NCBI GenBank assembly: GCA_964484005.1
Contig: CAZADR010000002.1
Span: forward strand, 10,318-74,317
DNA: 64,000 bases
Reading direction: 5' to 3'
Source: an uncultured Candidatus Saccharibacteria bacterium
GTDB taxonomy: Bacteria; Patescibacteriota; Minisyncoccia; Phycocordibacterales; UBA9973
Shown: piece after piece, positions 4,459 through 60,773 of the stretch
Numbering within the stretch: position 1 is the stretch's first letter
How the letters are laid out: every line of letters starts with the position of its first letter
Position numbers and translations under genes: made by a program
Notes under the pieces: generated by a model
Told to the model about the DNA's origin: nothing
What the model saw: only the letters and a program-made list of their open reading frames with translations
The model's database searches: none

Positions 4459-4517
4459 TTCTAAATTTCTCATTTTATATATTCTGTGGATAACTTTTTT
4501 TTACTTGTTTTTTTATT

Positions 4518-18285: not shown

Positions 18286-18291
18286 CCTAAG

Positions 18292-19842
18292 GTGGCATTT
18301 GCAAAAGTATACTCCGCGCAAGTAAGCTTACTCTCGGGAGCTATAGTAACTATCGAAGTAGACCTGTCCAGAGGACTGCATTCTTTTAGTGTCGTCGGAC
18401 TGCCTGATAAAGCGGTGGACGAATCGAAAGACAGAGTGAGTGGAGCGATAAAAAATTCTGGTTTTCAATCTCCTAAAGCCAAGAACCAAAAAATAATAGT
18501 ATCACTTTCACCGGCCGACTTAAAAAAAGAGGGGCCGTTTTTTGATTTAGCTATTGCTCTTTCTTATATGTTGGCGGCGGGGGATATAAAATTTGATTCG
18601 GAAAAGAAAATATTTTTAGGGGAACTCGGACTAGATGGCACACTACGGAGGATTCGTGGAGCTTTACCACTCGCCCAAGAAGCCAAGCGAATGGGATTTG
18701 AAGAAATATATTTACCAAAAGAAAATGCGGTGGAGGCGGCTTTGGTGGAAGGTATAAAAATATTTGGTGCTGAAAGCTTGAAAGAGGTGGTTGAACACAT
18801 AGATGAAGGCAAAAAAGAATTACAAAAACAATTAAATAAAATTTTAATTCAACCTCAGACAAAAATAAATTATAAAAAAGAAATAGCTCGGACGGACTTT
18901 GCAGATATTCGTGGACAAGAAGGTGCCAAGCGCGGGCTCGAGATAGCTGCGGCCGGCGGACACAATATCGCCATGTATGGTCCACCGGGTACAGGCAAGA
19001 CGATGCTCGCTAGAGCTTTCTCTCAGCTCTTACCAGATTTAAGTATTGAAGAAGTTTTAGAAATCACTGGCATACATTCTGTAGCGGGAAGCACTAGGGG
19101 GGAGCTCGTTTGCTTTTCTCCTTTTCGTGCTCCGCACCACACTGCTTCTTATGTTTCTATTATTGGTGGAGGAACTTTTCCAAAACCGGGAGAAGTGACT
19201 CTCGCGCACAGGGGAGTGCTTTTTCTAGATGAGTTTCCTGAATTTGAAAAAAGAGTCATCGAATCTTTGCGTCAGCCACTCGAAGACAACATTGTCTCTA
19301 TCTCTCGCGCCAAAGGCACGGCTGTGTTTCCTTCAAATTTTATTTTAGTAGCAGCAATGAATCCTTGTCCATGTGGAAACTCTGGCAACAAACAAAAAGC
19401 CTGCATCTGTAAACCTTCAGATCTAGATAGATATAAGAGAAAGCTTTCTGGGCCGATTGTGGACCGTATTGATCTCTGGGTCTCTGTCGGAAATGTGGAT
19501 TACAAGAAACTCGGGGGAGAGGGCACTGGTGAAAAAAGTGAAAAGATAAAAGAGAGGGTGACAAGGGCGCGAGAAATTCAAAAAGATAGATTTAAAAAAT
19601 TTGAAAAAGATATCAAGACGAATAGTGAAATGAATGTAAAAGATTTGGGCACCATGGTGATACTCGATGGAAAAGTAAGGGACTTACTCGATGACAGCGC
19701 TGAACGACTTTCCTTGTCTGCGAGAGCATATCATCGAGTCTTAAAGATAGCTCGCACTATTGCCGACCTAGAAAACTCTCCAAACGTAGAAGCACATCAT
19801 ATCCTAGAAGCTATACAATATAGGCCGAAAGTGAATCAGTAA
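18292..19842 (+). CDS. comM: YifB/ComM-family Mg-chelatase-like AAA+ ATPase (GTG start)
   Basis: GPPGTGKTMLARAF Walker A, LFLDEFPEF Walker B, plus Lon-like N-terminal and C-terminal domains. Confidence 0.85.
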   Translation: MAFAKVYSAQVSLLSGAIVTIEVDLSRGLHSFSVVGLPDKAVDESKDRVSGAIKNSGFQSPKAKNQKIIVSLSPADLKKEGPFFDLAIALSYMLAAGDIKFDSEKKIFLGELGLDGTLRRIRGALPLAQEAKRMGFEEIYLPKENAVEAALVEGIKIFGAESLKEVVEHIDEGKKELQKQLNKILIQPQTKINYKKEIARTDFADIRGQEGAKRGLEIAAAGGHNIAMYGPPGTGKTMLARAFSQLLPDLSIEEVLEITGIHSVAGSTRGELVCFSPFRAPHHTASYVSIIGGGTFPKPGEVTLAHRGVLFLDEFPEFEKRVIESLRQPLEDNIVSISRAKGTAVFPSNFILVAAMNPCPCGNSGNKQKACICKPSDLDRYKRKLSGPIVDRIDLWVSVGNVDYKKLGGEGTGEKSEKIKERVTRAREIQKDRFKKFEKDIKTNSEMNVKDLGTMVILDGKVRDLLDDSAERLSLSARAYHRVLKIARTIADLENSPNVEAHHILEAIQYRPKVNQ

Positions 19843-35320: not shown

Positions 35321-35385
35321 TTGTAAACATTTTGTGTTGATAACTTTCTTCACTTACTTTTTATTTTGCTGTATAATTAAAATCT

Positions 35386-38120: not shown

Positions 38121-38190
38121 AAAAAAAGTTTTTACAAAAAATCCCCACCACAATTAACATTGGTGGGGATTTTTTGGTATACTATATGTA

Positions 38191-39951
38191 ATGCAAATAA
38201 ACGAAGAACAGCTAAAGAAGTCTATTTTAGAATCTGGTCTCGTCTCTAAAACAGATTTTGAAGAAGCGCTAAAAAAAGCTGAAGAAAAAAAACAAAAAGT
38301 TGGAAATATTTTAATTTCTGAAGGAAAAATATCAGAAACAGACCTAAAACAAATGGAAGCTTTTGTTTTGGGTATTCCTTTCATTAATCTAAATAATGAA
38401 AAGATAGATGCCGCTGTTCTTTCATTGATTCCTGAGCCAATCGCCCGAAATGACAATATTGTCGCTTACAAAAAGACAGACAACAGTCTAGAAGTGGCAA
38501 TGCTCGATGTGGATGATTTGCCAGTTATTGATTTTATAAAAAAACGTTCTGGTTTAAAAATTTTACCTCGTTTGACAGATACTTCTTCCATCAAATCTGT
38601 GCTCGTCCAATATCGCCAGAGCCTAAAGGCGGAATTTCAAGATATCATTAAAAAAGAATCCGATTCGTTGGGGGATTCAATCGACGAAGAGGGAGATAAG
38701 CCTCACGAAAAATCGGAAAATGAATTGAAAGAAATGGCAGAAGATTTGCCAGTGGTAAAGATAGTAGATTCTCTTGTCTTTCATGCTATTTTACAAAATG
38801 CTTCAGACATCCATATCGAGCCAGGGGAGAAAAACCTCACCGTGCGTTACCGTATCGACGGTATCTTGCACGATGCGATGGTGCTCGATAAAAATGCTGG
38901 TCTTGGTATCACTGCGCGTATAAAAGTTTTGACCAATTTAAAACTTGATGAAAAAAGATTGCCCCAAGATGGTAGATTTAAAATAGAACAAAATGGAGAA
39001 AAGATTTCTTTTCGTGTTTCCACCTTGCCTACTTTCTTTGGAGAAAAAACAGTTATCAGAATCTTGAAAGAAAATTCTCACGGTTTTTCTTTGGAGACCC
39101 TTGGTTTTCACGGAGAAGGACTTGAGCTTATACATAACTCAATGAAATTAAAAACAGGTATGGTGCTTGCTACTGGTCCGACTGGAAGTGGAAAGACAAC
39201 GACCCTTTATACCATGTTAGATATTTTAAATAGACCTGAAGTAAATATTTCTACCGTTGAAGATCCGATAGAATATCAAATGCCGAGAGTAAACCAGACT
39301 CAAGTTAAACCAGAAATTGGATTAACTTTTGCCAATGGACTTCGTTCTCTCCTCCGACAAGATCCAGATATCGTGATGGTGGGGGAGATTCGTGACGGAG
39401 AGACGGCAGGTCTCGCCATTAATGCTTCTCTCACAGGGCACTTGGTATTGTCTACTATCCATACCAACTCAGCCGCAGGTGCCATCCCTAGACTTATAGA
39501 TATGGGAGTAGAGCCTTTTCTTATTACCGCTACCGTCAAGACAATCATTGCCCAGAGGCTCGTTCGTCGTCTTACTGAAAAAAAAGAAAAATATTTTTTA
39601 TCATCAGCTGAGATAAAAAATCTTGGAAAAATTGTAGACATAGACAGAGTGCTTACTTTCTTAAAAACAGAAAAAATAATATCAGATGACAGTACAATTG
39701 AAAAAATTCCGTTTTATAAAGCGATAAAAAATGGTGAATTTGAAGATGGGTATTCCGGTCGCATAGGTATGCATGAAGTATTAAAGGTAACATCATCTAT
39801 TAGAGAAATGATTTTAAAAGGAAGTTCTCAGGACGAGGTAGAGGCACAGGCTAAAAAAGAAGGGATGCTCACCATGCTCGAAGATGGAGTATTTCAATCC
39901 GTTTTAGGGGTGACGACACTAGAAGAAGTGTTTCGTGTGGTTTCTGAATAA
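38191..39951 (+). CDS. pilB: Type IV pilus assembly ATPase PilB / GspE family
   Basis: GspE N-terminal domain, Walker A GPTGSGKTTTLYTML, Asp box and His box regions; 586 aa. Confidence 0.85.
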   Translation: MQINEEQLKKSILESGLVSKTDFEEALKKAEEKKQKVGNILISEGKISETDLKQMEAFVLGIPFINLNNEKIDAAVLSLIPEPIARNDNIVAYKKTDNSLEVAMLDVDDLPVIDFIKKRSGLKILPRLTDTSSIKSVLVQYRQSLKAEFQDIIKKESDSLGDSIDEEGDKPHEKSENELKEMAEDLPVVKIVDSLVFHAILQNASDIHIEPGEKNLTVRYRIDGILHDAMVLDKNAGLGITARIKVLTNLKLDEKRLPQDGRFKIEQNGEKISFRVSTLPTFFGEKTVIRILKENSHGFSLETLGFHGEGLELIHNSMKLKTGMVLATGPTGSGKTTTLYTMLDILNRPEVNISTVEDPIEYQMPRVNQTQVKPEIGLTFANGLRSLLRQDPDIVMVGEIRDGETAGLAINASLTGHLVLSTIHTNSAAGAIPRLIDMGVEPFLITATVKTIIAQRLVRRLTEKKEKYFLSSAEIKNLGKIVDIDRVLTFLKTEKIISDDSTIEKIPFYKAIKNGEFEDGYSGRIGMHEVLKVTSSIREMILKGSSQDEVEAQAKKEGMLTMLEDGVFQSVLGVTTLEEVFRVVSE

Positions 39952-39958
39952 AATTAAT

Positions 39959-41179
39959 ATGCTTTTTTTATACAAAGCAAAATCAAAAACAGGAGAGATA
40001 ACTGAGGGGGAGCAAGAATCCCTTGATCGTTTTTCTTTAAATAAAGATCTCAAATCTCGTGGATTTACTCCTTTGTCGATTGTTGAAAAAAATAAAACTT
40101 TTGGTGGTAATTTTTCTATAAATTTTTCTAATATTTTTTCAAAAGTAAAGATTTCTGAACAAATTATTTTTACTAAAAATTTGAGCGGAATGATAAAAGC
40201 AGGTCTTTCCCTCAGTCGCGCTTTGTCAGTTTTGAGAAAACAAACAAAAAACCAGAAACTAAATGATATATTTTTATCTATTTCAAATGACATAAATGCA
40301 GGGGCGACTTTTTCTTCTGCTTTAGCAAAGTTTCCCGAAGTTTTTTCCAAATTATTTATATCGATGGTCAGAGCTGGTGAAGAGTCTGGAAATCTAGCTG
40401 GTTCCTTGTCTGATATAGCTTTAAACTTAGAAAAAGCAAACTCTTTAACAAAAAAAATAAAAGGAGCACTCATCTATCCAGGGGTCATAATGTCTGCTAT
40501 GGTGGTCATCGGAGTTTTGATGTTTGCTTTTGTGGTTCCTACCTTGGCAAATACTTTCAAAGAGCTCGGTGTCACACTGCCTCTCTCTACCAGAGCCCTT
40601 ATCTTTTTCGGTAACTTTTTTTCCAATCATCTCATTTTGACTTTTGCGATTATCTTATCTATTGCCTTTGGTTTCTTTATGCTTTTTCGTTCAAAATTTA
40701 TGGCAAAATATATCGATTTTGTACTTATGAAAATTCCAGTTATCGGAACCATGGCGAGAGAGTTAAATACTGCTCGTACAGCGAGAACCATCTCATCTCT
40801 TTTGTTGTCTGGGGTTTCTATTACTCGTGCAGTGGAAATCACCGAGGATGTCGTACAAAATATTTACTATAAAAAAGTTTTAAAGGAAGCTAGAATAGCG
40901 ATAGAAAAAGGAGCTCCGTTTTCTGAAGCTTTTGAGAAAAATACCAATCTTTACCCAGTGATGATGTCTGAGATGGTTCAGGTTGGAGAGGAGACAGGGA
41001 AACTTTCCGACATGTTGCTCCAAATTGCTCTTTTTTACGAAGAGGAAATTGAAAATAAAACAAGAAATCTTTCGACCATTATCGAACCAATATTGATGAT
41101 ATTTATTGGTTCAGGTGTTGGGTTTTTTGCCATCTCCATGATTTCTCCACTTTATTCAATATTAGGAAGCATTGGTTAA
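39959..41179 (+). CDS. pilC: Type IV pilus platform protein PilC / GspF family
   Basis: Two GspF repeats and polytopic membrane segments; the start is taken at the ATG at 39959, just after the pilB stop. Confidence 0.8.
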   Translation: MLFLYKAKSKTGEITEGEQESLDRFSLNKDLKSRGFTPLSIVEKNKTFGGNFSINFSNIFSKVKISEQIIFTKNLSGMIKAGLSLSRALSVLRKQTKNQKLNDIFLSISNDINAGATFSSALAKFPEVFSKLFISMVRAGEESGNLAGSLSDIALNLEKANSLTKKIKGALIYPGVIMSAMVVIGVLMFAFVVPTLANTFKELGVTLPLSTRALIFFGNFFSNHLILTFAIILSIAFGFFMLFRSKFMAKYIDFVLMKIPVIGTMARELNTARTARTISSLLLSGVSITRAVEITEDVVQNIYYKKVLKEARIAIEKGAPFSEAFEKNTNLYPVMMSEMVQVGEETGKLSDMLLQIALFYEEEIENKTRNLSTIIEPILMIFIGSGVGFFAISMISPLYSILGSIG

Positions 41180-42714: not shown

Positions 42715-43977
42715 ATGAAAAAACAAAAAGAAAGAAAAATAAATAAACAAAAAGGAGCAGCTATGTTGATATCAGTAGTATTTTTTCTTTTTATTTCTCT
42801 GGCGATAGTTTCTGGACTCGTTTCTCCGGCGGTGAGAGAATTTAAAATTTCGAGTGACTTGATAAGGTCTCGCCAAAGCTTGTTTTTATCTGAGTCAGGA
42901 ATAGAGGATGCATATTTTAGATTAAAAACAGCGAAACCAATCGCTTCTATTACTTATTTAACCCTTGGAGGAAATACTGCCACTACTACCATAACTGACT
43001 CTGGTTATAATGAAAAAACAATCAATACATTAGGAGATGTTTCTTCTAGGCAAAGAGTAAATAAAGTAGTGCTTTCTACTGGTACAGGAGTTTCTTTTAG
43101 TTATGGGGTGCAGGCGGGACTCGGGGGTTTTACTATTGGTAATGCGACAATAAATGGAAATGTTTATTCAAATGGAACAATAGAAGGGGCGAATGGCGCG
43201 ATCATAACTGGCTCTGCTTTTTCTGCAGGAGCTTCTGGGCTTATAGATAATATCGATGTCGGCCAGTCGGGAACAGGAGATGCCAGAGCCCACGTTGTTA
43301 CAAATTCTAACATTACAGGCAATCTATATTGTCAAAGTGGAACAGGGAACAATAAAGCATGTGACACATCACAAGCAGATCCTGCCACCACCAGTATGCC
43401 GATTACGGAAGCCATGTTTGATAAATGGAAAGCCGACGCAGAATTGGGTGGAATTATAACTGGAGATTTGACCATATCAACACCTTCGATTCTCGGTCCT
43501 AAAAAAATTACAGGCAATTTAGCCATAAATAGTGACGTTGTTATTTCTGGTACTCTTTATGTAGTAGGAAACATCACTACAAACAATGGAGCCCAGGTTT
43601 CTTTGGATAGTTCTTATGGCCCTACAGGCGGTATCATAGTGACCGATGGGCGTGTCACTCTTTCTAATAATGTAAATTTTGCTGGTTCTGGAAGTGAGGG
43701 TTCTTATGTTCTGTTAGCTACGACGAGCCCTTGTCCATCTGGATGCTCTGGTTTAAATGCTTTGGAGATTTTAAATAATGTGGGGGCCATCCTAGTAAGT
43801 GCGCAATACGGCACAGTGCACTTGAACAACAATGTTGCCTTAAATGAAGTGGTAGGTAATAGAATAATTGTAGATAACAGTGCTGAAGTTACCTATGTTT
43901 CTGGTTTGGCTAGCACTCTTTTTACCTCTGGGCCTTCTGGTGGATGGAGCATAAAGTCTTGGAAAGAGGTCAAATGA
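42715..43977 (+). CDS. Membrane-anchored Gly/Thr/Asn-rich protein, probable pilus-associated component
   Basis: N-terminal TM helix then repetitive G/T/N/S-rich sequence suggestive of beta-helix; last gene of the pilus cluster. Confidence 0.4.
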   Translation: MKKQKERKINKQKGAAMLISVVFFLFISLAIVSGLVSPAVREFKISSDLIRSRQSLFLSESGIEDAYFRLKTAKPIASITYLTLGGNTATTTITDSGYNEKTINTLGDVSSRQRVNKVVLSTGTGVSFSYGVQAGLGGFTIGNATINGNVYSNGTIEGANGAIITGSAFSAGASGLIDNIDVGQSGTGDARAHVVTNSNITGNLYCQSGTGNNKACDTSQADPATTSMPITEAMFDKWKADAELGGIITGDLTISTPSILGPKKITGNLAINSDVVISGTLYVVGNITTNNGAQVSLDSSYGPTGGIIVTDGRVTLSNNVNFAGSGSEGSYVLLATTSPCPSGCSGLNALEILNNVGAILVSAQYGTVHLNNNVALNEVVGNRIIVDNSAEVTYVSGLASTLFTSGPSGGWSIKSWKEVK

Positions 43978-46632: not shown

Positions 46633-47023
46633 ACAAAGCTCCTAAGATTTTTTTTAATACTTCTTTTTCTTCTCCATTTTCGTATGTCTTGGTGGGTAAG
46701 TTTGGAAAACGAATAGCATGATATCTAGGAATTAAGTGAATGTGAAAATGAGGTACTTCATTTCCAACCACAGATTCTTGGACATAATCACAACCCAGGG
46801 CTTTTTTGAGAGTTATCATCATCTTTTTTGTTAGTTTGAATATTTCTGAAATAGTCTCATCATCAGCTTCTTGCATCCAGACAATGTGCTTTTTGGGGAT
46901 GATTATCAGGTGTCCATCTGAAACTGGTTTGATATCAAGAAAAACTAGAAATTTTTCGTCTTCATATATATTATCGCTAGGTATTTCTTTTTTTACAATT
47001 TTACAAAAAATACAATCGTCCAT
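46631..47023 (-). CDS. HIT-family (histidine triad) hydrolase
   Basis: HFHIHLIP histidine triad motif; 130 aa. Confidence 0.8.
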   Translation of the reverse strand: MDDCIFCKIVKKEIPSDNIYEDEKFLVFLDIKPVSDGHLIIIPKKHIVWMQEADDETISEIFKLTKKMMITLKKALGCDYVQESVVGNEVPHFHIHLIPRYHAIRFPNLPTKTYENGEEKEVLKKILGAL

Positions 47024-47060
47024 GCGAAAGATTATATCAAAATATGCTAAAATCTGCTAT

Positions 47061-48722
47061 ATGCAAAAATACGGTGAGTTATTGGGTGCACTTCTGAAAA
47101 AGAGGGGAATCACAGATTCGGAAGAAGCTGATATTTTTTTGAACCCAGACTATGAAAAGGGTTTACACGACCCTTTTTTAATGAGGGACATGGAAAAAGC
47201 CTGTGTGCGTATATTTGAGGCTATAGATGCCAAAGAAAAGATAGTAATTTATGCAGATTATGATTGTGATGGTATTCCGGGGGCTGTAATTTTAAATGAT
47301 TTATTTAAATTATTGGAGTATAAAAATTATGAGGTTTATATTCCTCAAAGAAATAGTGAGGGTTATGGATTAAATCTTGAGGCAATAAAACAGTTTGCAG
47401 GTAGAGGTGTAAAACTTTTGATAACCATAGATTTGGGTATTACGGCGGTGGCTGAAGTAGCCCAGGCCGAAGTAGATGGAATAGATGTGATAATTACAGA
47501 TCACCACATACCGCACGAAGTATTGCCTCGTGCTTATGCTATCTTAAATCCTAAAGTAGATGATTATCCAGAAAAGATGCTCTGTGGAGCAGGAGTGATG
47601 TTTAAACTCGTGCAAGGTTTTATAAAAAAATATGGAGAATATTTTAAGATTATAAATGGTAAAGAAAAGTGGATGCTAGACATGGCAGGACTCGCTACTT
47701 TGTCTGATATGGTTCCTCTAACTGGTGAAAATAGAGTGTTGGCATATTTTGGAATGAAGGTTTTACGAAAATCTCCTCGTCCTGGATTACAAAAACTTTT
47801 GGCCAAGATGAAAATTGATCAAAGGTATTTGTCGGAAGATGATATTGGTTTTATGGTTACCCCAAGGCTAAACGCTGCTTCACGCATGGATGATCCGATG
47901 CGTGCTTACGAACTTCTTTCTACAAGTGATGAGATAGAGGCAGACACTCTAGCGGAGCATCTGTCTAAAATAAATGATGAAAGGAAAACCATTGTGACGG
48001 GCATTATGCGAGAAGTAAATAAAAAATTTAGTGAAAATTCTGTGCATATGCAAAAAGAAGTAATTGTAATTGGAAATCCAAAATGGAAAGTAGGTATTTT
48101 GGGGTTGGTGGCAGGAAAAATTTCAGATGAATACAAAAAACCTGTTTTTGTTTGGGGAAAGGATGAAAATGATTTAATCAAAGGTTCTTGTCGGAGCGAT
48201 GGTTCGGTTTCGGTAGTAGAATTAATGACTGAAACTAAAGATTCTTTTCTAGAGTTTGGTGGCCATGAATTGGCTGGAGGATTTACTGTTCATAATGAAA
48301 AGATTCATTTTCTAGAAGATGAGTTGTCTCTTTCTTTTCATAAAGTAAAAAGAGACAAAAAAGAAGTTGAAATAAATTATGATGTTAAATCAGACTTAAA
48401 GGTTGTAAACATGAAAAATTGGAAGGAAATAGAGAAAATGGCTCCTTTTGGCTTGGGTAATCCAAAGCCAGTTTTTCTTTTTGAAAATGTAAAAATAGAA
48501 AAAATAAAAAAATTTGGCAAAAATGGTTCCGGTGAACATTTGGAAATAACTTTTTCTGACATAAACAACAACAAAGCTACCGCTATTTCTTTCTTTTCAA
48601 ATCATGAATCTTTTGATGTTCCAATTTTAGAAGATAAAAAAGTTAATTTGTTGGGAGTTTTTGATCTCTCTAGATTTAGGGGCAGGGCTGAGCTTCGATT
48701 GAGAATTGTTGGTATAATATAA
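47061..48722 (+). CDS. recJ: Single-stranded-DNA-specific exonuclease RecJ
   Basis: DHH motifs (ADYDCDGI, ITDHH) and DHHA1 domain. The start is set at 47061 (MQKYGELL); the track ORF from 46806 overlaps the HIT gene. Confidence 0.8.
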   Translation: MQKYGELLGALLKKRGITDSEEADIFLNPDYEKGLHDPFLMRDMEKACVRIFEAIDAKEKIVIYADYDCDGIPGAVILNDLFKLLEYKNYEVYIPQRNSEGYGLNLEAIKQFAGRGVKLLITIDLGITAVAEVAQAEVDGIDVIITDHHIPHEVLPRAYAILNPKVDDYPEKMLCGAGVMFKLVQGFIKKYGEYFKIINGKEKWMLDMAGLATLSDMVPLTGENRVLAYFGMKVLRKSPRPGLQKLLAKMKIDQRYLSEDDIGFMVTPRLNAASRMDDPMRAYELLSTSDEIEADTLAEHLSKINDERKTIVTGIMREVNKKFSENSVHMQKEVIVIGNPKWKVGILGLVAGKISDEYKKPVFVWGKDENDLIKGSCRSDGSVSVVELMTETKDSFLEFGGHELAGGFTVHNEKIHFLEDELSLSFHKVKRDKKEVEINYDVKSDLKVVNMKNWKEIEKMAPFGLGNPKPVFLFENVKIEKIKKFGKNGSGEHLEITFSDINNNKATAISFFSNHESFDVPILEDKKVNLLGVFDLSRFRGRAELRLRIVGII

Positions 48723-48727
48723 ACACA

Positions 48728-49198
48728 ATGAAAGAAGTCGTAAAAATATATACAGATGGTGCGGCTCGGGGCAATCCTGGGAGGGCGGGTTGGGGTGCTG
48801 TTTTTTTAATGGGCAAAAAAGTTGTTGAGCTTGGTGGAAGGAGTGATCATGCTACCAACAATCAAATGGAACTTACGGGGCCTATTGAAGCCTTAAAACA
48901 TCTTAAAAAACTTTCCCCTCCTCCTGGAGGAGGGGAAGTGACGATTGTGTCAGATTCTAAGTATGTCATTTTGGGAATAACAGAATGGATTTTTAATTGG
49001 CAAAAAAATAATTGGCGTAATGCTGCCAAGAAACCAGTCTTGAATCGTGAGCTTTGGGAAGAGCTGTACAAGCTTACAGAGGAATTGAAGCCTAAGTGGG
49101 AATATGTAAAAGGACACAATGGTGATAAATGGAACGAAAGAGCGGATGAGATAGCTACGAGTTTCGCTGATGGTACGGACATAGACTTAAAAAAATAA
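48728..49198 (+). CDS. rnhA: Ribonuclease HI
   Basis: IYTDGAARGNPGRAGWG, SDSKYV, HNGDKWNERADEIA. Confidence 0.85.
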   Translation: MKEVVKIYTDGAARGNPGRAGWGAVFLMGKKVVELGGRSDHATNNQMELTGPIEALKHLKKLSPPPGGGEVTIVSDSKYVILGITEWIFNWQKNNWRNAAKKPVLNRELWEELYKLTEELKPKWEYVKGHNGDKWNERADEIATSFADGTDIDLKK

Positions 49199-49218
49199 AA
49201 GTCTGTTATACTTCTCTC

Positions 49219-50739
49219 GTGCGTGATAAAGTTTTTTATATACTTTGTTTTGGTTTTTTATTAGGAGTGCTTTTGCGCTCTTTTGTTTTTGTAAATAATT
49301 ATTATGTTATTTTGTTCGCCGTAATTTCCATTGCGGTTTTTTTGTTTTTTATTTTTGTTTCACGAAATAATTGGGGAATTTTGTTTTGTGTTTTATTTAT
49401 TGCTTTTAGTTTTGGCATTTTTAGGTTTCACAGTGTTGATGCAGTCAACCCTACATTTTTTGAATCTAATGTTGGTAAAAAGGTTTCTTTGTTGGGACAA
49501 ATAATAGATGAACCTAATATTAAAGAAAATAATCAACAGTTAACAGTATTTGTAACTTCTAGAGGTTGGACATCGGGCTCCCTTGATGTCCAACCTCTTT
49601 TCACAAAAGTTCTGGTTTCTGCTGGTTTTGATGATGACTATAAATATGGTGATGCTGTAAAAATTGAGGGTGTTTTAAAGAAACCAGAAAACTTTACAAC
49701 TGACACAGGCAAAGAATTTGATTATATAAATTATTTACGAAAAGATGGAATATTATATGTGATGAGTTATCCCAAGATTGAGATTGTTTCTTCGGGTAAC
49801 GGAAACAAATTACAAAGTATTTTGTTTTTGGCCAAAGAGAAATTTTTAGAAAAAATAAACTTCTCAATAAATTCACCAGAGAATTTATTGATGGGTGGTC
49901 TCATCCTTGGAGAAAAGTCTTCTTTTGGTGAGGAGCTTCGAGAAAGCTTTGTGAATACAGGGACGATACATATAGTAGCTCTTTCTGGTTATAACGTGAC
50001 GATTATAGCTGAGTGGATTATGAAATTATTTTCTTTTTTACCTATAAATTTTGCAATTGGAACTGGAGTTTTTGCTATTATTTTATTTGTCCTAATGACA
50101 GGAGGGAGCTCTACTGCAATCAGGGCGGGGACTATGGCAATACTCGCACTGGTAGCTCGCGCGACCGGTAGAAATTATGATGTTGCGCGGGCGCTTATCC
50201 TCACTGCTCTTGTCATGGTCTTCATTAACCCATTTCTGTTGGTTTTTGATGTTTCTTTTCAGCTTTCTTTTATTGCGACAATAGCAGTGATATTTTTCGC
50301 TCCTAGAATTGAAAAATATTTTTTATGGGTACCAGACAAGTTTGGATTGAGAGATATCGTCTCTGTGACTAGTGCTGCTTATTTTTTTGTTTTTCCTTTT
50401 ATTCTTTATAAAATGGGAAATTTTTCTCTAGTGGCACTCCCAGCAAATATTTTAGTGCTTCCTTTTATTCCTATTACTATGTTGCTTGGATTTTTGACTG
50501 GTTTCGTGGGGCTCTTTTCATACACCCTCGCGATACCCCTTGGTTATTTTTCTTATTTTTTATTACATTATGAGTTAGGTGTGATAGGTTTTTTAGCCGA
50601 TATTCCTTTTGCTGTTTTTTCTTTTCCAAACTTTCCACTTTTTCTCGCACTTTTAACTTATGCCTATTTTATTTATAGACTGTTTGGTAGAAACATAAAG
50701 AGATTTTTTCAATTTGAAAAAGTTATTGAGCCTCTATAA
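49219..50739 (+). CDS. comEC: ComEC/Rec2 DNA-uptake channel, membrane (competence) domain
   Basis: Polytopic protein with the ComEC competence motif region IHIVALSGYNVTII; 506 aa; lacks the MBL domain, which is encoded separately at 51380..52135. Confidence 0.7.
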   Translation: MRDKVFYILCFGFLLGVLLRSFVFVNNYYVILFAVISIAVFLFFIFVSRNNWGILFCVLFIAFSFGIFRFHSVDAVNPTFFESNVGKKVSLLGQIIDEPNIKENNQQLTVFVTSRGWTSGSLDVQPLFTKVLVSAGFDDDYKYGDAVKIEGVLKKPENFTTDTGKEFDYINYLRKDGILYVMSYPKIEIVSSGNGNKLQSILFLAKEKFLEKINFSINSPENLLMGGLILGEKSSFGEELRESFVNTGTIHIVALSGYNVTIIAEWIMKLFSFLPINFAIGTGVFAIILFVLMTGGSSTAIRAGTMAILALVARATGRNYDVARALILTALVMVFINPFLLVFDVSFQLSFIATIAVIFFAPRIEKYFLWVPDKFGLRDIVSVTSAAYFFVFPFILYKMGNFSLVALPANILVLPFIPITMLLGFLTGFVGLFSYTLAIPLGYFSYFLLHYELGVIGFLADIPFAVFSFPNFPLFLALLTYAYFIYRLFGRNIKRFFQFEKVIEPL

Positions 50740-51316
50740 AATTGTTTTCAACAACTTCCCAGTTTAGGTTTTCAAAAAATGCTTCAATATATTTTTTCTT
50801 TTCGGATGTAGGGTAATCATACACATAGGCGTGTTCCCACATATCTAGGGCCAGTATCCATTTTACGCCATTTAGTTGTCCCATGTGTTGTTCGTCTACC
50901 CAGATATGTAATATTTGCTCTCTTTTTTTATCATAAGCCAACACAGCCCAGCCTATTCCACGAGTCATGGCTAGTATCTTAAAAGCATCGAGCCACGCTT
51001 CGAAAGTACCACACTCTGTTTCTATGGCCTTTTTTAATTTTGAATTTTCAGGTAATTTTTTTGCCCCTTCTTCTAGTGATTTGAAATAATATTCATGATT
51101 TTTAACACCATTAAATTCGAAACCATATCTTCTATGCAACTCTCCAATGACATACATATTCTTTTCTGGTTCGAGCATATACTCTTCTAATTTTTCAAAT
51201 ATCAAATTTGCATTTTTTACATATCCAGCGTAAAGCTTTAAATGTTCTTCGATATTTTTTTCAGATATCCCTTTTAGTGGACCAATATTAAATTTTACTT
51301 CTTCAAATTTTTTCAT
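50723..51316 (-). CDS. Fe/Mn superoxide dismutase family protein
   Basis: FNGVKNHEYYF and DMWEHAYVYDY motifs provide metal ligands His, Asp and His; 197 aa; the N-terminal His pair is only partly conserved. Confidence 0.6.
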   Translation of the reverse strand: MKKFEEVKFNIGPLKGISEKNIEEHLKLYAGYVKNANLIFEKLEEYMLEPEKNMYVIGELHRRYGFEFNGVKNHEYYFKSLEEGAKKLPENSKLKKAIETECGTFEAWLDAFKILAMTRGIGWAVLAYDKKREQILHIWVDEQHMGQLNGVKWILALDMWEHAYVYDYPTSEKKKYIEAFFENLNWEVVENNFIEAQ

Positions 51317-51379
51317 AATTTTTTATTTTTCCTAGGCATTCTGCCAAGGATAGGTTAATTTATATGTTAACATTATAAC

Positions 51380-52135
51380 ATGCCCGCACAAAGCAGAAAG
51401 TATGGCCTTTTGTTATTTACATTTTTGCTGTTATTGGTAAATATTTTTCTTTTTCTTTTAGACTGGGAAAACTCTCATCGACAGCTTACTTTTGCCGTAC
51501 TGGATGTCGGCCAGGGTGACGCTCTTTTCATAGAATCTCCCACTGGAATACAAGTATTGTTTGATGCTGGGCCTGCTCGAAAGGTTTTAGGTCCACTCAT
51601 GAGGGTGATGTCTCCTTTTGATAGAACCATAGACGCAGTATTTATTACTAATCCAGACGCAGATCACATCGGTGGATTTTTGGATGTATTAAAAAATTAT
51701 AAAGTGGGGATGGTTCTCGAACCTGGAACTTTGACTGACACTAAGACATATCAAAATTTAAAAAAAGAAATTAATATTAAAAATATTCCGAATATTTTAG
51801 CTAAAAAAGGCATGAGGTTGGATATGGGAGGTGGTGTATTTATAGATATTTTATTTCCAGACAGGGATGTGTCTTTGTGGTCTACTAATGACGGTTCTCT
51901 TGTGGCGCGTTTGGTTTATGGGGAAACTTCAATAATGCTTACTGGTGATACAACTAGTAAAACTGAAAGAATAATTTTAGAACAGAATAAAGAAAATCAA
52001 TTTGTTAGTACTGTTTTAAAGGTTGCCCATCACGGCTCCAGGTCTTCTTCATCTGTTTCTTTTGTGGAAAAAGTTTCTCCAGTTTATGCCTTAATTTCAA
52101 ATGGAAAAGAAAATAAATATGGGCACCCCCACTGA
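51380..52135 (+). CDS. ComEC C-terminal metallo-beta-lactamase domain protein (interrupted by in-frame TGA at 52136)
   Basis: LDVGQGDALFIESP, NPDADHIGG, VAHHGS motifs. After ..YGHPH a TGA is followed in frame by ETLDTLSRFGAQILRTDLLGTVIM, which matches the usual ComEC C-terminal tail. Confidence 0.65.
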   Translation: MPAQSRKYGLLLFTFLLLLVNIFLFLLDWENSHRQLTFAVLDVGQGDALFIESPTGIQVLFDAGPARKVLGPLMRVMSPFDRTIDAVFITNPDADHIGGFLDVLKNYKVGMVLEPGTLTDTKTYQNLKKEINIKNIPNILAKKGMRLDMGGGVFIDILFPDRDVSLWSTNDGSLVARLVYGETSIMLTGDTTSKTERIILEQNKENQFVSTVLKVAHHGSRSSSSVSFVEKVSPVYALISNGKENKYGHPH

Positions 52136-52227
52136 GAAACATTAGATACATTGTCTCGTTTTGGGGCTCAAATTCTCCGTACTGACCTACTTGGCACTGT
52201 AATTATGAAGTGTGATAGAATGGAAAC

Positions 52228-53472
52228 ATGCGTGATAAAAAAATAGAAAAACTAATAAAAGGGGAGGAGCAGAGGCAAAGAGAAGGATTGGAACTTATTC
52301 CATCTGAGAATTATGTTTCAGAAGATGTGCTGAAGGCCAATGGTTCTGTATTTACAAATAAGTATTCAGAAGGGTACCCTGGGCGCAGATATTACGGCGG
52401 GCAGGATTTTACAGACCAAGTAGAGAGATTAGCCATCGAGCGTGTTTGTAAATTATTTAAATGTAAATATGCAAATGTTCAACCGCACTCTGGGGCGCCC
52501 GCAAATTTGGCTGTTTATGCTGCTTTACTTGAACCAGGGGATACTGTACTCGGCATGGATTTATCTCATGGTGGGCACCTCACTCACGGACATCCGATGA
52601 CTCTTCCGGCCAAGATTTATAAATTTGTCACCTACAAGATGAAAGATCCTGAAACGGGAGAAATTGATTATGAAGACATGCGCAAAGTTGCACTTCAGTA
52701 TAAACCAAAATTAATTATTGCAGGATTTTCTGCTTACTCACGCACCTTGAATTACAAAAAATTTGTTGAGATTGCCAGAGAAGTCAGTGCTGTCACCATG
52801 GCAGATATGGCACATATTGCAGGCCTCATCGCAGCTGGTGCTCTTCGTAATCCCTTTGATGATGGTTTTGATATTATTACTTCCACCACCCACAAGACTC
52901 TTCGTGGACCACGCGGAGGAATAATTTTGACTCGCGAAAGTGAAGAAATCGCTAAAAAAATTGATAAGTCTATTTTCCCGGGCATCCAAGGTGGACCACA
53001 TATGCATACGATAGCTGGGAAGGCTGTAGCTTTTGGTGAAGCAATGACTCCAAAATTTAAAAAATATGCCAAGCAAATTTTGAAAAATGCGAAGGCAATG
53101 GAAAAAGTATTTCACAAAAATAACATTCGTATGATTGGCGGTGGTACAGACAATCACCTTATTTTGGCAGATGTTTTCGGCTCTCTCGGAGTCACAGGCA
53201 AAGAAGCACAGAGCGTGCTCGACGAAGTCGGTATTACTTTAAATATGAACTCCATCGCTGGGGACACCAGAAAGCCTTTAGACCCTTCAGGTATTCGTTT
53301 TGGTACTCCAGCTATCACTACCCGTGGATTTAAGGAAAAAGAATGTGCTTATGTGGCAGAGCTCATGTTGAAAGTTTTGAGAAACAAAGACGATAAAAAA
53401 ATAAAAGAAGTAGTGCACAAAGAAATTAAAAAATTAGCTAAGAAATTTCCAATACCAAAGAAATTTGTATAA
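52228..53472 (+). CDS. glyA: Serine hydroxymethyltransferase
   Basis: HGGHLTHG and TTHKTLRGPRGG (PLP lysine region); 414 aa. Confidence 0.9.
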   Translation: MRDKKIEKLIKGEEQRQREGLELIPSENYVSEDVLKANGSVFTNKYSEGYPGRRYYGGQDFTDQVERLAIERVCKLFKCKYANVQPHSGAPANLAVYAALLEPGDTVLGMDLSHGGHLTHGHPMTLPAKIYKFVTYKMKDPETGEIDYEDMRKVALQYKPKLIIAGFSAYSRTLNYKKFVEIAREVSAVTMADMAHIAGLIAAGALRNPFDDGFDIITSTTHKTLRGPRGGIILTRESEEIAKKIDKSIFPGIQGGPHMHTIAGKAVAFGEAMTPKFKKYAKQILKNAKAMEKVFHKNNIRMIGGGTDNHLILADVFGSLGVTGKEAQSVLDEVGITLNMNSIAGDTRKPLDPSGIRFGTPAITTRGFKEKECAYVAELMLKVLRNKDDKKIKEVVHKEIKKLAKKFPIPKKFV

Positions 53473-53484
53473 AAATTAAAAATC

Positions 53485-54165
53485 ATGAATTTAAAAAATA
53501 AAGTTGTGGTTATTACTGGATCTACGGGCGGACTCGGAAAAGCTCTAGCTTCAGAGTTTATCAGTGAACAGGCCAAAGTTATTATAAACGGACATTCTGT
53601 GAAACAACTTCATAAAGTAAGTGAAGAGATAGGAGCATTGTCCTGTGTCGGTGATGTGACAAAAGAAACTGACATGCAAAAGCTTGCGAATTTTGCTGTA
53701 AAGAAATTTGGGAAAATAGATATTTGGATAAATAATGCGGGCGCCAATATGCCTCATTCGACTATTGAAAAAATTGATTCTAGGTTGGCCCATAGGGTTA
53801 TGGAAGTTAATTTTTTTGGAACTTTCTTTGGTTCTCGCTCAGTGATTAAACATATGAAGAAACAGAAATATGGAACTATTGTAAATGTAGTTTCTGTAAG
53901 GTCTCTCGTTCCGAGTCCTATTTCAATAGTTTATTCTTCAAGTAAATGGGCGGTACGAGGACTTACAGAAGTGTTGCGTATGATTCTTAAACCTGACCAT
54001 ATTTCTGTAATAGCTGTGCATCCGGCTGGTATGAAAACAAATTTATTCGGCAAAATTAAGCCAGAAGGATATAAAAATTATATGGAGCCTTCTTTTGCTG
54101 CTAAAAAAATAGTTCAGAATTTAAAACTTTCAAAACCCAAAGAAGAGTTAATTGTAAAAAAATAA
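53485..54165 (+). CDS. Short-chain dehydrogenase/reductase (SDR)
   Basis: TGSTGGLGKA Rossmann motif and YSSSK catalytic YxxxK. Confidence 0.75.
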   Translation: MNLKNKVVVITGSTGGLGKALASEFISEQAKVIINGHSVKQLHKVSEEIGALSCVGDVTKETDMQKLANFAVKKFGKIDIWINNAGANMPHSTIEKIDSRLAHRVMEVNFFGTFFGSRSVIKHMKKQKYGTIVNVVSVRSLVPSPISIVYSSSKWAVRGLTEVLRMILKPDHISVIAVHPAGMKTNLFGKIKPEGYKNYMEPSFAAKKIVQNLKLSKPKEELIVKK

Positions 54166-56989: not shown

Positions 56990-57266
56990 TATTGTAAGTA
57001 GAAGAGTGTTCCCAACCCTAACCTGCAAGGAAAGGAAGGACTAAACAATGATGCAGATGAGGTACAGCCCACTTTCTCGTCGTATCAGGTTGTTTTGGTT
57101 GAGGAGGAACAAAGTTCACCTGATGTTGCGTCAAAATTCTGTATCCATCTGCGTCAGACGAGCTGCGGTTTATTTCATGCCTCAGCGCGGCTAGATATCT
57201 CCACAGGTTTGCAGGCACACCTCAAAGTGCCTGCTTTTTATTCCAACAGTATGTTATATTTTATAT
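56990..57266 (+). promoter_or_regulatory. GC-rich structured leader with intrinsic terminator (57211-57242) immediately upstream of ileS - candidate attenuator/riboswitch
   Basis: About 270 nt with GC well above background and multiple local palindromes; terminator GCAGGCAC-ACCTCAAA-GTGCCTGC + TTTTTATT ends 25 nt before the ileS ATG. Confidence 0.4.
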
Positions 57267-60200
57267 ATGGAAGAAAAGGATAATAACAAATCAGAAGCAG
57301 CTCTCCGAGAAGAGCGTATTTTAGACTTTTGGCGCGAAAATAAAACTTTTGAGAAGACCTTAACGAAAGAGGCACCTGGTGGGCATTATGTTTTTTATGA
57401 TGGTCCGCCTTTTGCTACAGGACAAATTCACTATGGGCATATTTTAGGTAGTACGGTAAAAGATGTAATAGGAAGATATAAAACCATGCAAGGTTTTTAT
57501 GTACCTCGAAAATGGGGTTGGGATTGTCATGGCTTACCAATTGAAAATATTGTTGAAAAAGAATTAGGTATTGCTGGGCATGTAGAGATTGAAAAATACG
57601 GTATTGATAAATTTGTGGAATATGCACGCAGTAAGGTTCTGCAATATGACAAGGACTGGGAGAAGGGAATTGAGCGTATCGGACGCTGGGTGGATTTTCG
57701 TGGCCAGTATAAAACGATGGACAACACTTTTATCGAGTCTGTTTGGTGGGCATTGTCGGAGTTAAACAAAAAGAAACTTATCTATGAGGGGGTGAGAGTT
57801 CTCGCTTATTGTGCTCGTTGTGAGACACCGATTGCTAATTCTGAAATCGCGATGGACAACAGTTACAAAGATATTTCTGATATTTCTGTTTATGTAAAAT
57901 TTGAGTTAGAAGGAGAACCTGGTACTTATTTGCTTGCTTGGACGACGACCCCTTGGACATTACCAGGCAATACAGCCATCGCCATCAATCAAGATATTGT
58001 TTATATAAAAGTAAAAGTAGCAGAAGATGTTTTAATTCTTGCCAAAGAAACGGTGCAAAATGTTTTGAAAGATAAAGAGTATTTGGTGTTGGGCGAAATA
58101 AAAGGAGCAGACTTAATTGGCAAAACATATAAACCGGTTTTCCCATATTATAAAAATTCTGAATCTGCCAAGAATGAAAATATTTGGAAAGTTTGGCACG
58201 CAGACTTTGTCACCCTAGAAAAGGGAACAGGTATTGCTCACGAAGCTCCTGCTTTTGGTGAAGATGATATGAACTTGGCAAAACAAAATAATATTCCTTG
58301 GATAATCCATGTAGACGAAACAGGAAAATTTAAGTCTGAGATTGTGGATTTTGCTGGCATGCAGGTAAAACCAAAAGGTATTGAAAAAGATGACCACCAG
58401 AAAGCAGACATAGAAGTTATAAAATATCTGGCAAAAAATAATTTACTTTTTGCTAAAGAAAAGATAATTCACTCATATCCACACTGTATGCGCTGTGATA
58501 CGCCGATTATATATTATGCATTACCTTCTTATTTTATAAATATTCAGGAAGTAAAAAAAGATATAATCAAAAAATCACATAGTATAAATTGGATACCTTC
58601 ACACTTAAAAGAGGGACGGTTTAAAAATATAGTAGAGAATGCACCGGATTGGAACATATCTAGGAATCGTTATTGGGCGAGCCCTCTTCCAATTTGGAAA
58701 TGTGAAAATTGTAAAGAAAAAACTTTTGTTAATTCTTTAGAAGATTTAAAGTCAAAAGTAAAAAATTCTGGCAATCAGTATTTTGTTGCTCGTCATGGAC
58801 AAGCTGACAGTAATGCGGGAATGTATATTGATTCAAAATCAAAACAATCAAACAAATTAACCGAAAAAGGGAAAGAAGAGGTAAGAGAAAGTGTGCAAAA
58901 AATAAAAGGTACAAATTTTGATTATGTTTTCTGTTCACCAATGCTTCGCACCAAAGAAACTGCAAAAATAATAGCTGAAAATTTAAAGATGGATATAGGT
59001 CAAATTGTTTTTGATGAACGCCTGGTTGAATTTCAGGTGGGAGACTTAGATGGAAAAAGTATAGAAGAATACTTTAAATATATCGAAACTATTCCAGATT
59101 ATTTTTCAACTCCACTCCCTGGAGGGGAGAGTAGGCTTGCTGTACACAAGCGTATGGGAGATTTTATTTATGAGTTGGAAAAGAAATATTCTGATAAAAA
59201 AATATTAATAATCTCTCACGGAGATCCGATATTAGCACTCTTTTTGTTGAGCGAAGGGTATACAAAAGAAAAAATAAAAGAACAGGAAAAAAACTTCCCA
59301 TATTTTAAAACAGGAGAAATAAGAGAGCTTTCTTTTGTGCCTCTTCCACACAATAAAGACTATGAGTTGGATTTACATCGTCCATATATTGATGACATAC
59401 CACTTGTGTGCGAGTGTGGCAGTCACTTGGTGCGTATACCTGAAGTATTAGATTGCTGGTTTGAATCTGGCTCCATGCCTTTTGCTCAAGATCATTTTCC
59501 TTTTGAAAATAAGGAGTGGCAAAAGAATAATTTTCCTGCAGGTTTTGTGGCTGAATATATCGCTCAGACTAGAACTTGGTTTTATTATACCCATGTTGTA
59601 TCTACAATTCTTTTCGATTACACCCCATTCAAAAATATAGTAACCACTGGTACCTTGAGAGCGGAAGATGGAGAAAAAATGTCTAAATCCAAACAGAATT
59701 ATCCTGATCCTTGGAAATTTATAGATAAATATGGGGCAGACGCCTTGCGCCTTTACTTGATGTCTTCTACTTTAATGAAAGGGGAAGATTCAAATTTTTC
59801 AGAGAAAGCTGTGCAGGATATCGCTAGTAAGATTATTGGGCGTTTGTTTAATGTGTTTGCCTTTTATGAATTATACAGAGATAAAGAAATAGAGACAGAT
59901 GAAGTGCCAAAAAGTGAAAATATTCTCGACAAATGGATTTTATTGCGTTTTTATAAAACTCTTGAAGAAACTTCTAAAGGTATGGAGTTATACGATATGG
60001 TAGAAGCTACCCGTCCAATCGATGCATTGGTCAACGATCTTTCCACTTGGTATCTTCGCCGTTCTCGTGAACGAATCAAAGATGGAGACGCAGAGGCAAA
60101 ACAAACTTTGTATTTTATTTTAAAAACCTTAGCAAAAATGCTTGCTCCATTTGCACCATTTTCCGCGGAAGATATATGGCTAAAATTAAAAAATGAAAAT

Positions 60201-60773
60201 GATGAAGAAAGTGTGCACCTGACTAGTTGGCCAGAAGTTCATAAATCTTTCTTGGACACTATTTTGGGAAGGACAGTCCTTCACGGAGATAAAGAAATAA
60301 TAGAAAATATGGAAAAAGTTCGAAATATTGTAACTTTGGGCCTCGAATCAAGACAAAAAGCTGGGATAAAAGTTCGCCAGCCACTCGCCAAGTTGGAAGT
60401 AAAAAATCTTGAGCTTGGAGATGAGCTTGTGGAGCTCATAAAAGATGAAATAAATGTAAAAGAAATTCTTGAAAATAAAAACATTGAAGGAGAAGTTTTG
60501 CTTGATGTAAAAATTGATGATGAATTAAAGATAGAGGGGGATTATCGAGAGCTCGCTAGGGCATTGCAGGATATGAGAAAGAAAATCGGCCTTACTCCGA
60601 GTGATGTTATTTCAATTACTTTTGAAACAAGTGAAATAGGTAAGAATTTAATTCAAAAATTTGAAGTTGATATGAAAAAAACCGTACTAGCTTCCAAAAT
60701 AGAATTTGCAGGCAATGATGGCGAAGAAATAAAAATAGACAGTTTTATCTTCAAGGTAAAAATTCTAAAATAA
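57267..60773 (+). CDS. ileS: Isoleucine--tRNA ligase with inserted histidine-phosphatase-like domain
   Basis: HYGHIL (HIGH), KMSKS, editing and anticodon domains. About 200 extra aa between the CENC and CECG zinc-knuckle halves carry VARHGQADSN, CSPMLRTKETA and ISHGDPI (histidine phosphatase branch-1 signatures). Total 1168 aa. Confidence 0.85.
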   Translation: MEEKDNNKSEAALREERILDFWRENKTFEKTLTKEAPGGHYVFYDGPPFATGQIHYGHILGSTVKDVIGRYKTMQGFYVPRKWGWDCHGLPIENIVEKELGIAGHVEIEKYGIDKFVEYARSKVLQYDKDWEKGIERIGRWVDFRGQYKTMDNTFIESVWWALSELNKKKLIYEGVRVLAYCARCETPIANSEIAMDNSYKDISDISVYVKFELEGEPGTYLLAWTTTPWTLPGNTAIAINQDIVYIKVKVAEDVLILAKETVQNVLKDKEYLVLGEIKGADLIGKTYKPVFPYYKNSESAKNENIWKVWHADFVTLEKGTGIAHEAPAFGEDDMNLAKQNNIPWIIHVDETGKFKSEIVDFAGMQVKPKGIEKDDHQKADIEVIKYLAKNNLLFAKEKIIHSYPHCMRCDTPIIYYALPSYFINIQEVKKDIIKKSHSINWIPSHLKEGRFKNIVENAPDWNISRNRYWASPLPIWKCENCKEKTFVNSLEDLKSKVKNSGNQYFVARHGQADSNAGMYIDSKSKQSNKLTEKGKEEVRESVQKIKGTNFDYVFCSPMLRTKETAKIIAENLKMDIGQIVFDERLVEFQVGDLDGKSIEEYFKYIETIPDYFSTPLPGGESRLAVHKRMGDFIYELEKKYSDKKILIISHGDPILALFLLSEGYTKEKIKEQEKNFPYFKTGEIRELSFVPLPHNKDYELDLHRPYIDDIPLVCECGSHLVRIPEVLDCWFESGSMPFAQDHFPFENKEWQKNNFPAGFVAEYIAQTRTWFYYTHVVSTILFDYTPFKNIVTTGTLRAEDGEKMSKSKQNYPDPWKFIDKYGADALRLYLMSSTLMKGEDSNFSEKAVQDIASKIIGRLFNVFAFYELYRDKEIETDEVPKSENILDKWILLRFYKTLEETSKGMELYDMVEATRPIDALVNDLSTWYLRRSRERIKDGDAEAKQTLYFILKTLAKMLAPFAPFSAEDIWLKLKNENDEESVHLTSWPEVHKSFLDTILGRTVLHGDKEIIENMEKVRNIVTLGLESRQKAGIKVRQPLAKLEVKNLELGDELVELIKDEINVKEILENKNIEGEVLLDVKIDDELKIEGDYRELARALQDMRKKIGLTPSDVISITFETSEIGKNLIQKFEVDMKKTVLASKIEFAGNDGEEIKIDSFIFKVKILK

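Follow-up and report, generated by a model that had tools for sequence, protein, structure and literature searches.

Here, we describe a locus for the DNA uptake protein ComEC in a 64,000-nucleotide stretch of contig CAZADR010000002.1 from an uncultured Candidatus Saccharibacteria bacterium; this whole stretch, with a G+C content of 36.7%, is referred to below as the window. The channel half and the nuclease half of ComEC are encoded by two neighboring genes, a superoxide dismutase (SOD) gene lies between them on the opposite strand, and the second ComEC gene, which encodes a metallo-β-lactamase (MBL) domain, is interrupted by a TGA codon behind which the reading frame continues. For comparison, we surveyed 85 related loci, made up of 80 species-level genomes and five contigs of the closest relatives, as well as the 120 best database matches for each ComEC half. 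Alignment A1 and the closest relative, L007 (89% identity in the MBL protein), are referred to throughout. The locus comprises the following features:

49219-50739, plus strand: gene for the N-terminal half of ComEC (ComEC-N; 506 amino acids), intact, stop codon TAA; DUF4131 (OB fold; PF13567, E = 1.3e-19) and Competence (transmembrane channel domain; PF03772, E = 6.2e-48)
50713-51353, no strand: SOD cassette of ~641 nt, in the window and absent from L007, delimited by DNA alignment of the L007 junction
50723-51316, minus strand: Fe/Mn SOD gene (197 amino acids); Sod_Fe_C (PF02777, E = 3.7e-22) and PDB entry 1coj (E = 1.5e-24)
51317-51379, no strand: divergent intergenic region of 63 nt between the SOD and MBL gene starts
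51380-52135, plus strand: truncated ORF for the nuclease half of ComEC (251 amino acids), with an N-terminal transmembrane (TM) helix and Lactamase_B (PF00753, E = 1.2e-10), running through the GHPH motif and ending in TGA
52133-52135, plus strand: premature TGA, identical in six assemblies; relatives have a variable sense codon here (K, Q, P, or R)
52136-52246, plus strand: in-frame tail of 36 intact codons (52136-52243) and TAG (52244-52246), encoding one helix and two β-strands at the end of the MBL fold (structure model), with L, L, R-T-D, and G invariant in alignment A1
52228-53472, plus strand: glyA, encoding serine hydroxymethyltransferase (SHMT; PF00464, E = 3.8e-154)

Pfam placed the Competence domain at residues 228 to 488 of the 506-amino-acid protein, and the MBL half matched the ComEC MBL domain of PDB entry 9ic4 (E = 7.7e-44). 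An earlier note, made from the sequence alone, had named a ComEC competence-domain ORF, a ComEC-type MBL ORF, and an opposite-strand Fe/Mn SOD at these positions, and the domain and structure matches bear out all three assignments.

ComEC on two polypeptides

At every one of the 85 related loci in which both ComEC halves were visible, they were separate ORFs. The 120 best homologs of the N-terminal half were all 473 to 523 amino acids long, with DUF4131 and Competence domains and no MBL domain, and those of the MBL half measured 278 to 301 amino acids, the sole exception being the 251-amino-acid product of the window itself (P0002). The sources named these homologs Candidatus Nomurabacteria, Paceibacterota, or Minisyncoccia. 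In a library clustered at 50% identity, stand-alone MBL proteins of ~270 to 300 amino acids dominated the 150 best clusters, down to ~36% identity, and fused ComECs of 697 to 818 amino acids appeared among these only at ~41 to 46% identity; the 251- and 506-amino-acid window products each formed a singleton cluster in the cluster look-up. A two-polypeptide ComEC, consisting of a ~500-amino-acid DUF4131-Competence protein and a ~288-amino-acid TM-MBL protein encoded by genes close together, is the standard form in Nomurabacteria/Paceibacteria, and the window, from a genome of the Nomurabacteria type, conforms to this description save for its 251-amino-acid MBL product.

SOD is missing from 12 of the 85 loci, L007 among them, and all 12 keep two ORFs with their own stop codons, mostly in different frames. 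Because the two ORFs persist in these SOD-less loci, the split is clearly independent of SOD. The earlier note had presented a split ComEC with sod between its halves, which stands as a description of the locus and not as a peculiarity of this genome, since the arrangement is clade-wide; the idea that an inserted sod had split ComEC here finds no support, given the universality of the two-gene form in the clade and its persistence without SOD. At the more distant locus L095 (37% identity), the two ComEC halves are adjacent, with no SOD. In L092 (50% identity; region 1148-2781), the stand-alone MBL gene is unlinked from ComEC-N and lies directly 3' of a gene encoding a Pribosyltran domain, which also occurs in ComF-type competence proteins, and this layout hints at an alternative linkage of competence genes.

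Canonical single-chain ComEC/Rec2, as in Bacillus subtilis (structures 30bt and 9vc6; MBL domain, 9ic4), contains the same modules in the same order as the window, namely, an OB fold, the Competence channel domain, and a TM helix leading into an MBL nuclease domain with conserved metal-binding motifs. The architecture of the window differs from this textbook form in its two-gene organization, with the break just before the last TM helix, and in the nested SOD: an antisense SOD gene usually stands between the two genes and precludes a single operon. A further difference, seen in this strain, is the loss of the last 36 residues from the MBL half. The MBL profile aligned with residues 514 to 790 of the full-length ComEC structure 30bt (E = 2.1e-42), and its start at residue 514 identifies the second gene as the counterpart of the final TM helix and C-terminal domain together. 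On TIGR00361, the model of full-length ComEC/Rec2, the N-terminal half covered positions 71 to 382 and the MBL protein joined to its tail covered positions 423 to 661; the separate halves scored 87.3 and 124.5 bits, both below the equivalog cutoff of 190 bits. The first gene supplies the OB fold and the membrane channel, and the second supplies an MBL nuclease that is anchored in the membrane and matches the end of canonical ComEC from its last TM helix onward.

The channel protein taken alone has the same DUF4131-Competence profile as the MBL-less ComECs of, for example, Helicobacter and Deinococcus (the "DC" profile of Pimentel and Zhang, 2018; PMC6299819). Unlike in those proteins, the MBL domain of this clade has not been lost but is encoded by a neighboring gene under purifying selection (ω, ~0.1 to 0.16). 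Surveys that score ComEC protein by protein would register the whole clade as having lost the MBL domain, though the neighboring gene encodes it, and histories of domain gain and loss (e.g., PMC6299819) may need correcting for bacteria of the candidate phyla radiation (CPR). The two genes occur in hundreds of public metagenome-assembled genomes, annotated as "ComEC/Rec2 family competence protein" and "MBL fold metallo-hydrolase." Full-text searching and papers on ComEC evolution and structure yielded no description of either the two-gene organization or the nested SOD, an absence that is not proof, and Pimentel and Zhang (2018) do not mention "split," "separate," or "adjacent" genes. The OB fold is reported to boost nuclease activity when both are on one chain (PMC12455585), and a natural two-chain ComEC offers a ready-made test of whether co-assembly in the membrane can replace covalent linkage.

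The premature TGA and the tail behind it

The earlier note rightly ended the MBL ORF at a TGA, which occupies 52133-52135; the position it gave, 52136, is the first base after this codon. It had also recognized a ComEC-like C terminus in frame beyond the stop, and the match extends to every relative, over 36 codons (ETLDTLSRFGAQILRTDLLGTVIMKCDRMETCVIKK) instead of the 24 it had counted. The exact SOD protein of the window was found on seven contigs, and the six loci retrieved from European Nucleotide Archive (ENA) MEGAHIT and Logan assemblies of different samples were 100% identical to the window over 49219-52245 (3,027 nt), including the 63-mer centered on the TGA. The TGA is real, and a one-off assembly error is excluded; the six loci inform no allele frequency. 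A search of JGI metagenome contigs for the exact flanking sequence, with the codon itself left open as NNN, gave 0 matches, and no strain variant with a sense codon was recovered there.

No internal stop was present in any of the 85 relatives, which makes the TGA unique among 86 sequences, and all relatives have 33 to 41 residues after the TGA column. The column is flanked by invariant G-H-P-H on one side and E-[TV]-L on the other (alignment A1) and is itself highly variable, with K in 30 relatives, Q in 26, P in 15, R in 7, and E, T, A, N, L, S, and M once each; Cys, Trp, and Gly were not found among the 85. Comparison with orthologs at this codon, which the earlier note had recommended, hence revealed sense codons and a conserved tail in the relatives, not a shared end at the same position. 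The nearest relatives carry AAA (L007), CCA (L008), and AAG (L009), all of which differ from TGA by two substitutions. One-step precursors occur elsewhere in the family (AGA twice and CGA once), and a path from Lys via Arg to the stop is plausible.

TGA serves as a normal stop elsewhere in the window, as the earlier note had stated. ORFs of at least 150 codons end in TAA (40), TAG (14), or TGA (8), and long ORFs are uninterrupted under translation table 11. TGA terminates genes for a CPT-like kinase, a methyltransferase, and a radical-SAM protein, with A, A, and G as the respective next bases, and a fourth TGA-ended ORF, without a Pfam match, is also followed by G. As TGA-G is thus found at other gene ends in the window, the TGA-G context at 52133-52135 is ordinary. 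Among the relatives, 8 of the 85 MBL genes and the ComEC-N gene of L017 end in TGA. A release factor gene with the GGQH[VI]N motif was not found in the window, so that the presence of release factor 2 rests on TGA usage only.

The metal-binding motifs DxDH, TGD, HHGS, and GHPH, up to H251, all lie upstream of the TGA, remain in the truncated product, and do not vary in alignment A1. The tail contributes six further invariant residues (L255, L258, R267, T268, D269, and G272) and belongs to the solved ComEC MBL domains, since the alignments to 9ic4 and 30bt extend to profile position 282. For the intact relative P0001, an AlphaFold2 model (mean predicted local distance difference test score, 78), whose best fold match in the PDB was again 9ic4 (Foldseek, E = 6e-23), shows a helix at 252-260, a strand at 264-267, a short helix at 268-271, and a strand at 274-278. 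With a helix and two strands located in the tail, the stop therefore removes core secondary structure and not a disordered extension. The MBL domain is present in the called product, but its fold is incomplete, being 36 residues short and devoid of this helix, the two strands, R-T-D, and G. Judged from its fold, the 251-amino-acid protein is most likely unstable or inactive. Residue labels that we had guessed for the region removed by the TGA were not found in the text of the Nucleic Acids Research 2025 paper. Separate translation of the tail as a peptide was considered and rejected, given that internal ATGs would yield peptides of at most 14 amino acids, with no fold.

The MBL frame contains neither a second stop nor a frameshift. 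Nei-Gojobori ω between the window and L007 was 0.16 for the body of the gene and 0.145 for the tail. When differences between these two were polarized with L008 and L009 as the outgroup, the window branch had 13 synonymous and 6 nonsynonymous changes versus 10 and 11 on the L007 branch (Fisher P = 0.22); the body on the window branch accounted for 11 and 6, and the tail for 2 and 0 unambiguous changes, most tail sites being ambiguous. Of the features expected from a pseudogene, the premature stop is present and unique among the 86 sequences, and further lesions or relaxed selection were not seen. The lack of a second lesion together with this pattern of selection implies that the MBL gene evolved like a gene under selection along almost the entire terminal branch. 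This leaves a very recent stop or a tail that is still usefully translated, and the data do not separate the two.

In the first half of the tail (52136-52200), codons of the window are shared with L008 (CGT TTT; ATT CTC CGT), and those of L007 are shared with L009 (CAA [GA]TT; ATC TTT CGC). The MBL gene as a whole groups the window with L007, unlike these tail codons, and intragenic recombination may have occurred.

Toward its end, the full-length MBL frame overlaps the start of glyA by 19 nt in the window, and the intact genes of L008 and L009 have an identical overlap. A 24-nt run, GTAATTATGAAGTGTGATAGAATG, at 52198-52221 on the plus strand, within the MBL tail and a short way 5' of the glyA ATG, is shared without any difference by the window, L007, L008, and L009. 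Over 1,467 nt, no other run of at least 20 nt is identical in all four genomes, with synonymous sites elsewhere near saturation. This conservation suggests a constraint at the level of RNA or of translation initiation, and the run is probably the translation initiation region of glyA embedded in the MBL tail.

Explanations for the stop and likely consequences for DNA uptake

We consider it likely that the TGA is a young, fixed, strain-specific nonsense allele in a normally two-gene ComEC, probably crippling the nuclease subunit. The recent nonsense mutation or pseudogenization that the earlier note had listed as one option is supported by the uniqueness of the stop among 86 sequences, its placement at a variable codon, the lack of a second lesion, and normal purifying selection on the window branch. 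In the proposed course of events, the variable codon just after GHPH would have become TGA in this strain, with AGA or CGA as one-step precursors, and normal termination there would yield a 251-amino-acid protein with the metal motifs and without the last helix, the two β-strands, R-T-D, and G. Several points weigh against this interpretation. The evidence for the TGA is at the assembly level, and the six assemblies represent one clonal population, probably from one study. The codons seen in the nearest clade would each have required two substitutions on the window branch to become TGA. The inactivity of the 251-amino-acid product is deduced from considerations of its fold. Finally, the intact tail and its low ω fit continued translation of the tail equally well, and 36 codons provide low power.

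That last point leads to an unlikely, though still appreciable, alternative, in which the stop is a true nonsense codon and basal near-cognate read-through yields enough 288-amino-acid nuclease to keep the tail under selection. UGA is the leakiest of the bacterial stop codons. The TGA column is so variable that whatever residue is inserted should be acceptable there, the tail carries no second lesion and has a ω matching that of the body, and the allele is fixed in the population seen in the six assemblies. Yet the 86 nt from 52130 (52130-52215) are devoid of a stimulatory structure, with a minimum free energy of −12 kcal/mol versus a mean of −16.2 kcal/mol for shuffled sequences (z = +1.42; 188 of 200 shuffles folded at least as well). 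Moreover, the TGA-G context is that of bona fide gene ends, the stop occurs in one strain only and thus lacks evolutionary conservation, and a very recent mutation accounts for the intact tail equally well. Programmed recoding, either by selenocysteine insertion or in a lineage that reads TGA as sense, is the least credible explanation. Some CPR lineages (Gracilibacteria and Absconditabacteria) do read TGA as Gly, but table 11 leaves the long genes across the 64-kb window unbroken and TGA acts as the terminator of real genes, which does not fit a TGA-reassigned code (tables 4 and 25), and the TGA-ended MBL genes of relatives point in the same direction. No hairpin resembling a selenocysteine insertion sequence (SECIS) was found in the folded region, an Rfam scan of 48500-53600 at E ≤ 1 returned two chance-level matches only, and ARAGORN detected no tRNA or tmRNA genes in the 64-kb window. 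The programmed read-through and the SECIS-like or read-through context that the earlier note had raised consequently receive no support from downstream structure, Rfam, the residues found in the TGA column, or the codon context.

It is improbable that the 251-amino-acid protein still works as a nuclease, which would make the stop effectively neutral. All motif residues to H251 are kept and invariant, and the body shows no relaxed selection on the window branch; however, the lost segment holds all six invariant tail residues (R-T-D and G among them), supplies one helix and two strands of the β-sandwich, which are ordered in solved ComEC structures, and is kept by all 85 relatives and by 119 of 120 database matches. 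A sequencing or assembly artifact hiding a sense codon, as the earlier note had also envisaged, is very unlikely. The case does rest on assemblies, and the six may derive from a few sequencing runs of one study, but MEGAHIT (ENA) and Logan assemblies of different samples, from two pipelines, share the 63-mer and 100% identity over 3 kb, the site is not a homopolymer, and TGA differs at two positions from the codons of the nearest relatives.

Under the preferred interpretation of a young nonsense allele, the cell would keep its DNA channel, and degradation of the nonimported strand would be lost or strongly reduced. The ComEC C-terminal domain is an Mn-dependent nuclease that degrades the nontranslocated strand (PMC8579336, PMC12455585), and metal-site mutants of this domain in B. 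subtilis suffer a 10- to 100-fold loss of transformation and are not null (PMC8579336). By analogy with B. subtilis, DNA uptake should be lowered and not abolished. In the patescibacterium Southlakia epibionticum, comEC is dispensable for growth and needed for transformation (PMC10633639). This dispensability, together with the residual transformation of the B. subtilis mutants, makes the loss tolerable. As a side effect, translational coupling to glyA might be lost: the full-length MBL frame overlaps the glyA ATG, and ribosomes that end at the TGA would halt 92 nt short of it. The other nearby competence-related genes look intact, including the channel half of ComEC and the genes for a ComM-like Mg-chelatase-family protein (18286-19842), PilB (38158-39951), and PilC (39923-41179). 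Taken with the B. subtilis precedent, the strain most likely combines an intact channel with a crippled nuclease subunit and still takes up DNA, at a reduced level.

Like nonsense pseudogenes of reduced genomes, the MBL gene carries a single strain-specific premature stop and is of a kind dispensable for growth in a related patescibacterium (PMC10633639). Unlike ordinary nonsense pseudogenes, its downstream frame is intact and its substitutions are still those of a selected gene, which makes it at most an incipient pseudogene. The TGA allele represents a natural nuclease truncation mutant in an uncultured patescibacterium, and its persistence across samples fits nonessential competence in this group.

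The SOD cassette and the surrounding genes

The order RecJ, RNase H, ComEC-N (plus strand), SOD (minus strand), MBL (plus strand), and SHMT (plus strand) was found in 73 of the 85 loci, with SOD in the same place and orientation, and the nested SOD is still present at 40% MBL identity (L094). The L007 junction corresponds to window sequence up to ~50712 joined to window sequence from ~51354; these breakpoints were read by eye from the DNA alignment and are good to a few bases. By this comparison, SOD is a presence/absence cassette of approximately 641 nt. Fitch parsimony on a neighbor-joining tree of the MBL proteins reconstructed SOD as present at the root and required at least nine changes, and pairwise SOD and MBL distances showed a weak but significant correlation (Mantel r = 0.26, P = 0.001). 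Together, root presence and the correlated distances favor an ancestral cassette that was probably lost repeatedly.

The SOD protein aligned over its full length with the Aquifex Fe-SOD 1coj, and all four metal ligands (H, H, D, and H) fell in conserved columns (H25, H74, D158, and H162 in the window protein, numbered from the alignment). Sod_Fe_N reached 23.8 bits, below the 27-bit Pfam cutoff. From the 1coj match and these ligands, the enzyme looks functional. In its Sod_Fe_C domain, four ligands, and patchy presence (12 of 85 loci without it), it resembles the Fe/Mn SOD described for Patescibacteria (K04564, PMC8672522), which is variably present in this group and more common in oxic groundwater, in agreement with the patchy presence seen here. 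It is unlike the described SOD in its fixed antisense position between the ComEC genes, which our literature searching did not find reported.

ComEC-N and SOD converge and SOD diverges from the MBL gene. The 3' overlap of ComEC-N and SOD was seen in every SOD-bearing locus inspected, measuring 17 nt in the window (50723-50739), L008 (4912-4928), and L009 (5344-5360) and 20 nt in L094 (3315-3334); with their 3' ends overlapping, the convergent transcripts must overlap as well. The SOD and MBL genes start 63 nt apart in opposite directions, and the intervening 51317-51379 presumably contains the promoters of both. A scan of 50600-52400 for promoters and terminators returned 6 versus 6.9 expected, which is not above chance. 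The motif GTTAACATTAYAA, immediately 5' of the MBL ATG, is common to the window and the SOD-less L007 in the DNA alignment. It might be speculated that the antisense nesting is functional, in that SOD and the gene for the Mn-dependent nuclease, along with glyA, are coregulated by metal or oxidative status, the nuclease being a separately controlled subunit of the channel and this strain a natural channel-only variant; we regard this as doubtful.

RecJ and RNase H lie directly upstream of ComEC-N in the window (46806-49198) and in L008, L009, L094, and L095, down to 37% MBL identity. RecJ, RNase H, and ComEC-N constitute a deeply conserved block of nucleic acid-processing genes around the DNA uptake channel.

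Elsewhere in the window, an isoleucyl-tRNA-synthetase-like protein of 1,192 amino acids (57195-60773, plus strand) has a His_Phos_1 domain (residues 530 to 693, E = 6e-28) inserted between its two class I catalytic parts; the insertion is also present in the orthologs of L001, L008, and L009 and is therefore conserved. Three large ORFs on the plus strand remained without a Pfam match at E ≤ 1e-5, or at 1e-3 in the case of the third: 4494-7370 (958 amino acids), 35377-38112 (911 amino acids), and 42715-43977 (420 amino acids). The second is located directly upstream of PilB/PilC, the third follows three small unannotated ORFs 3' of PilC, and all three may encode pilus or surface proteins.

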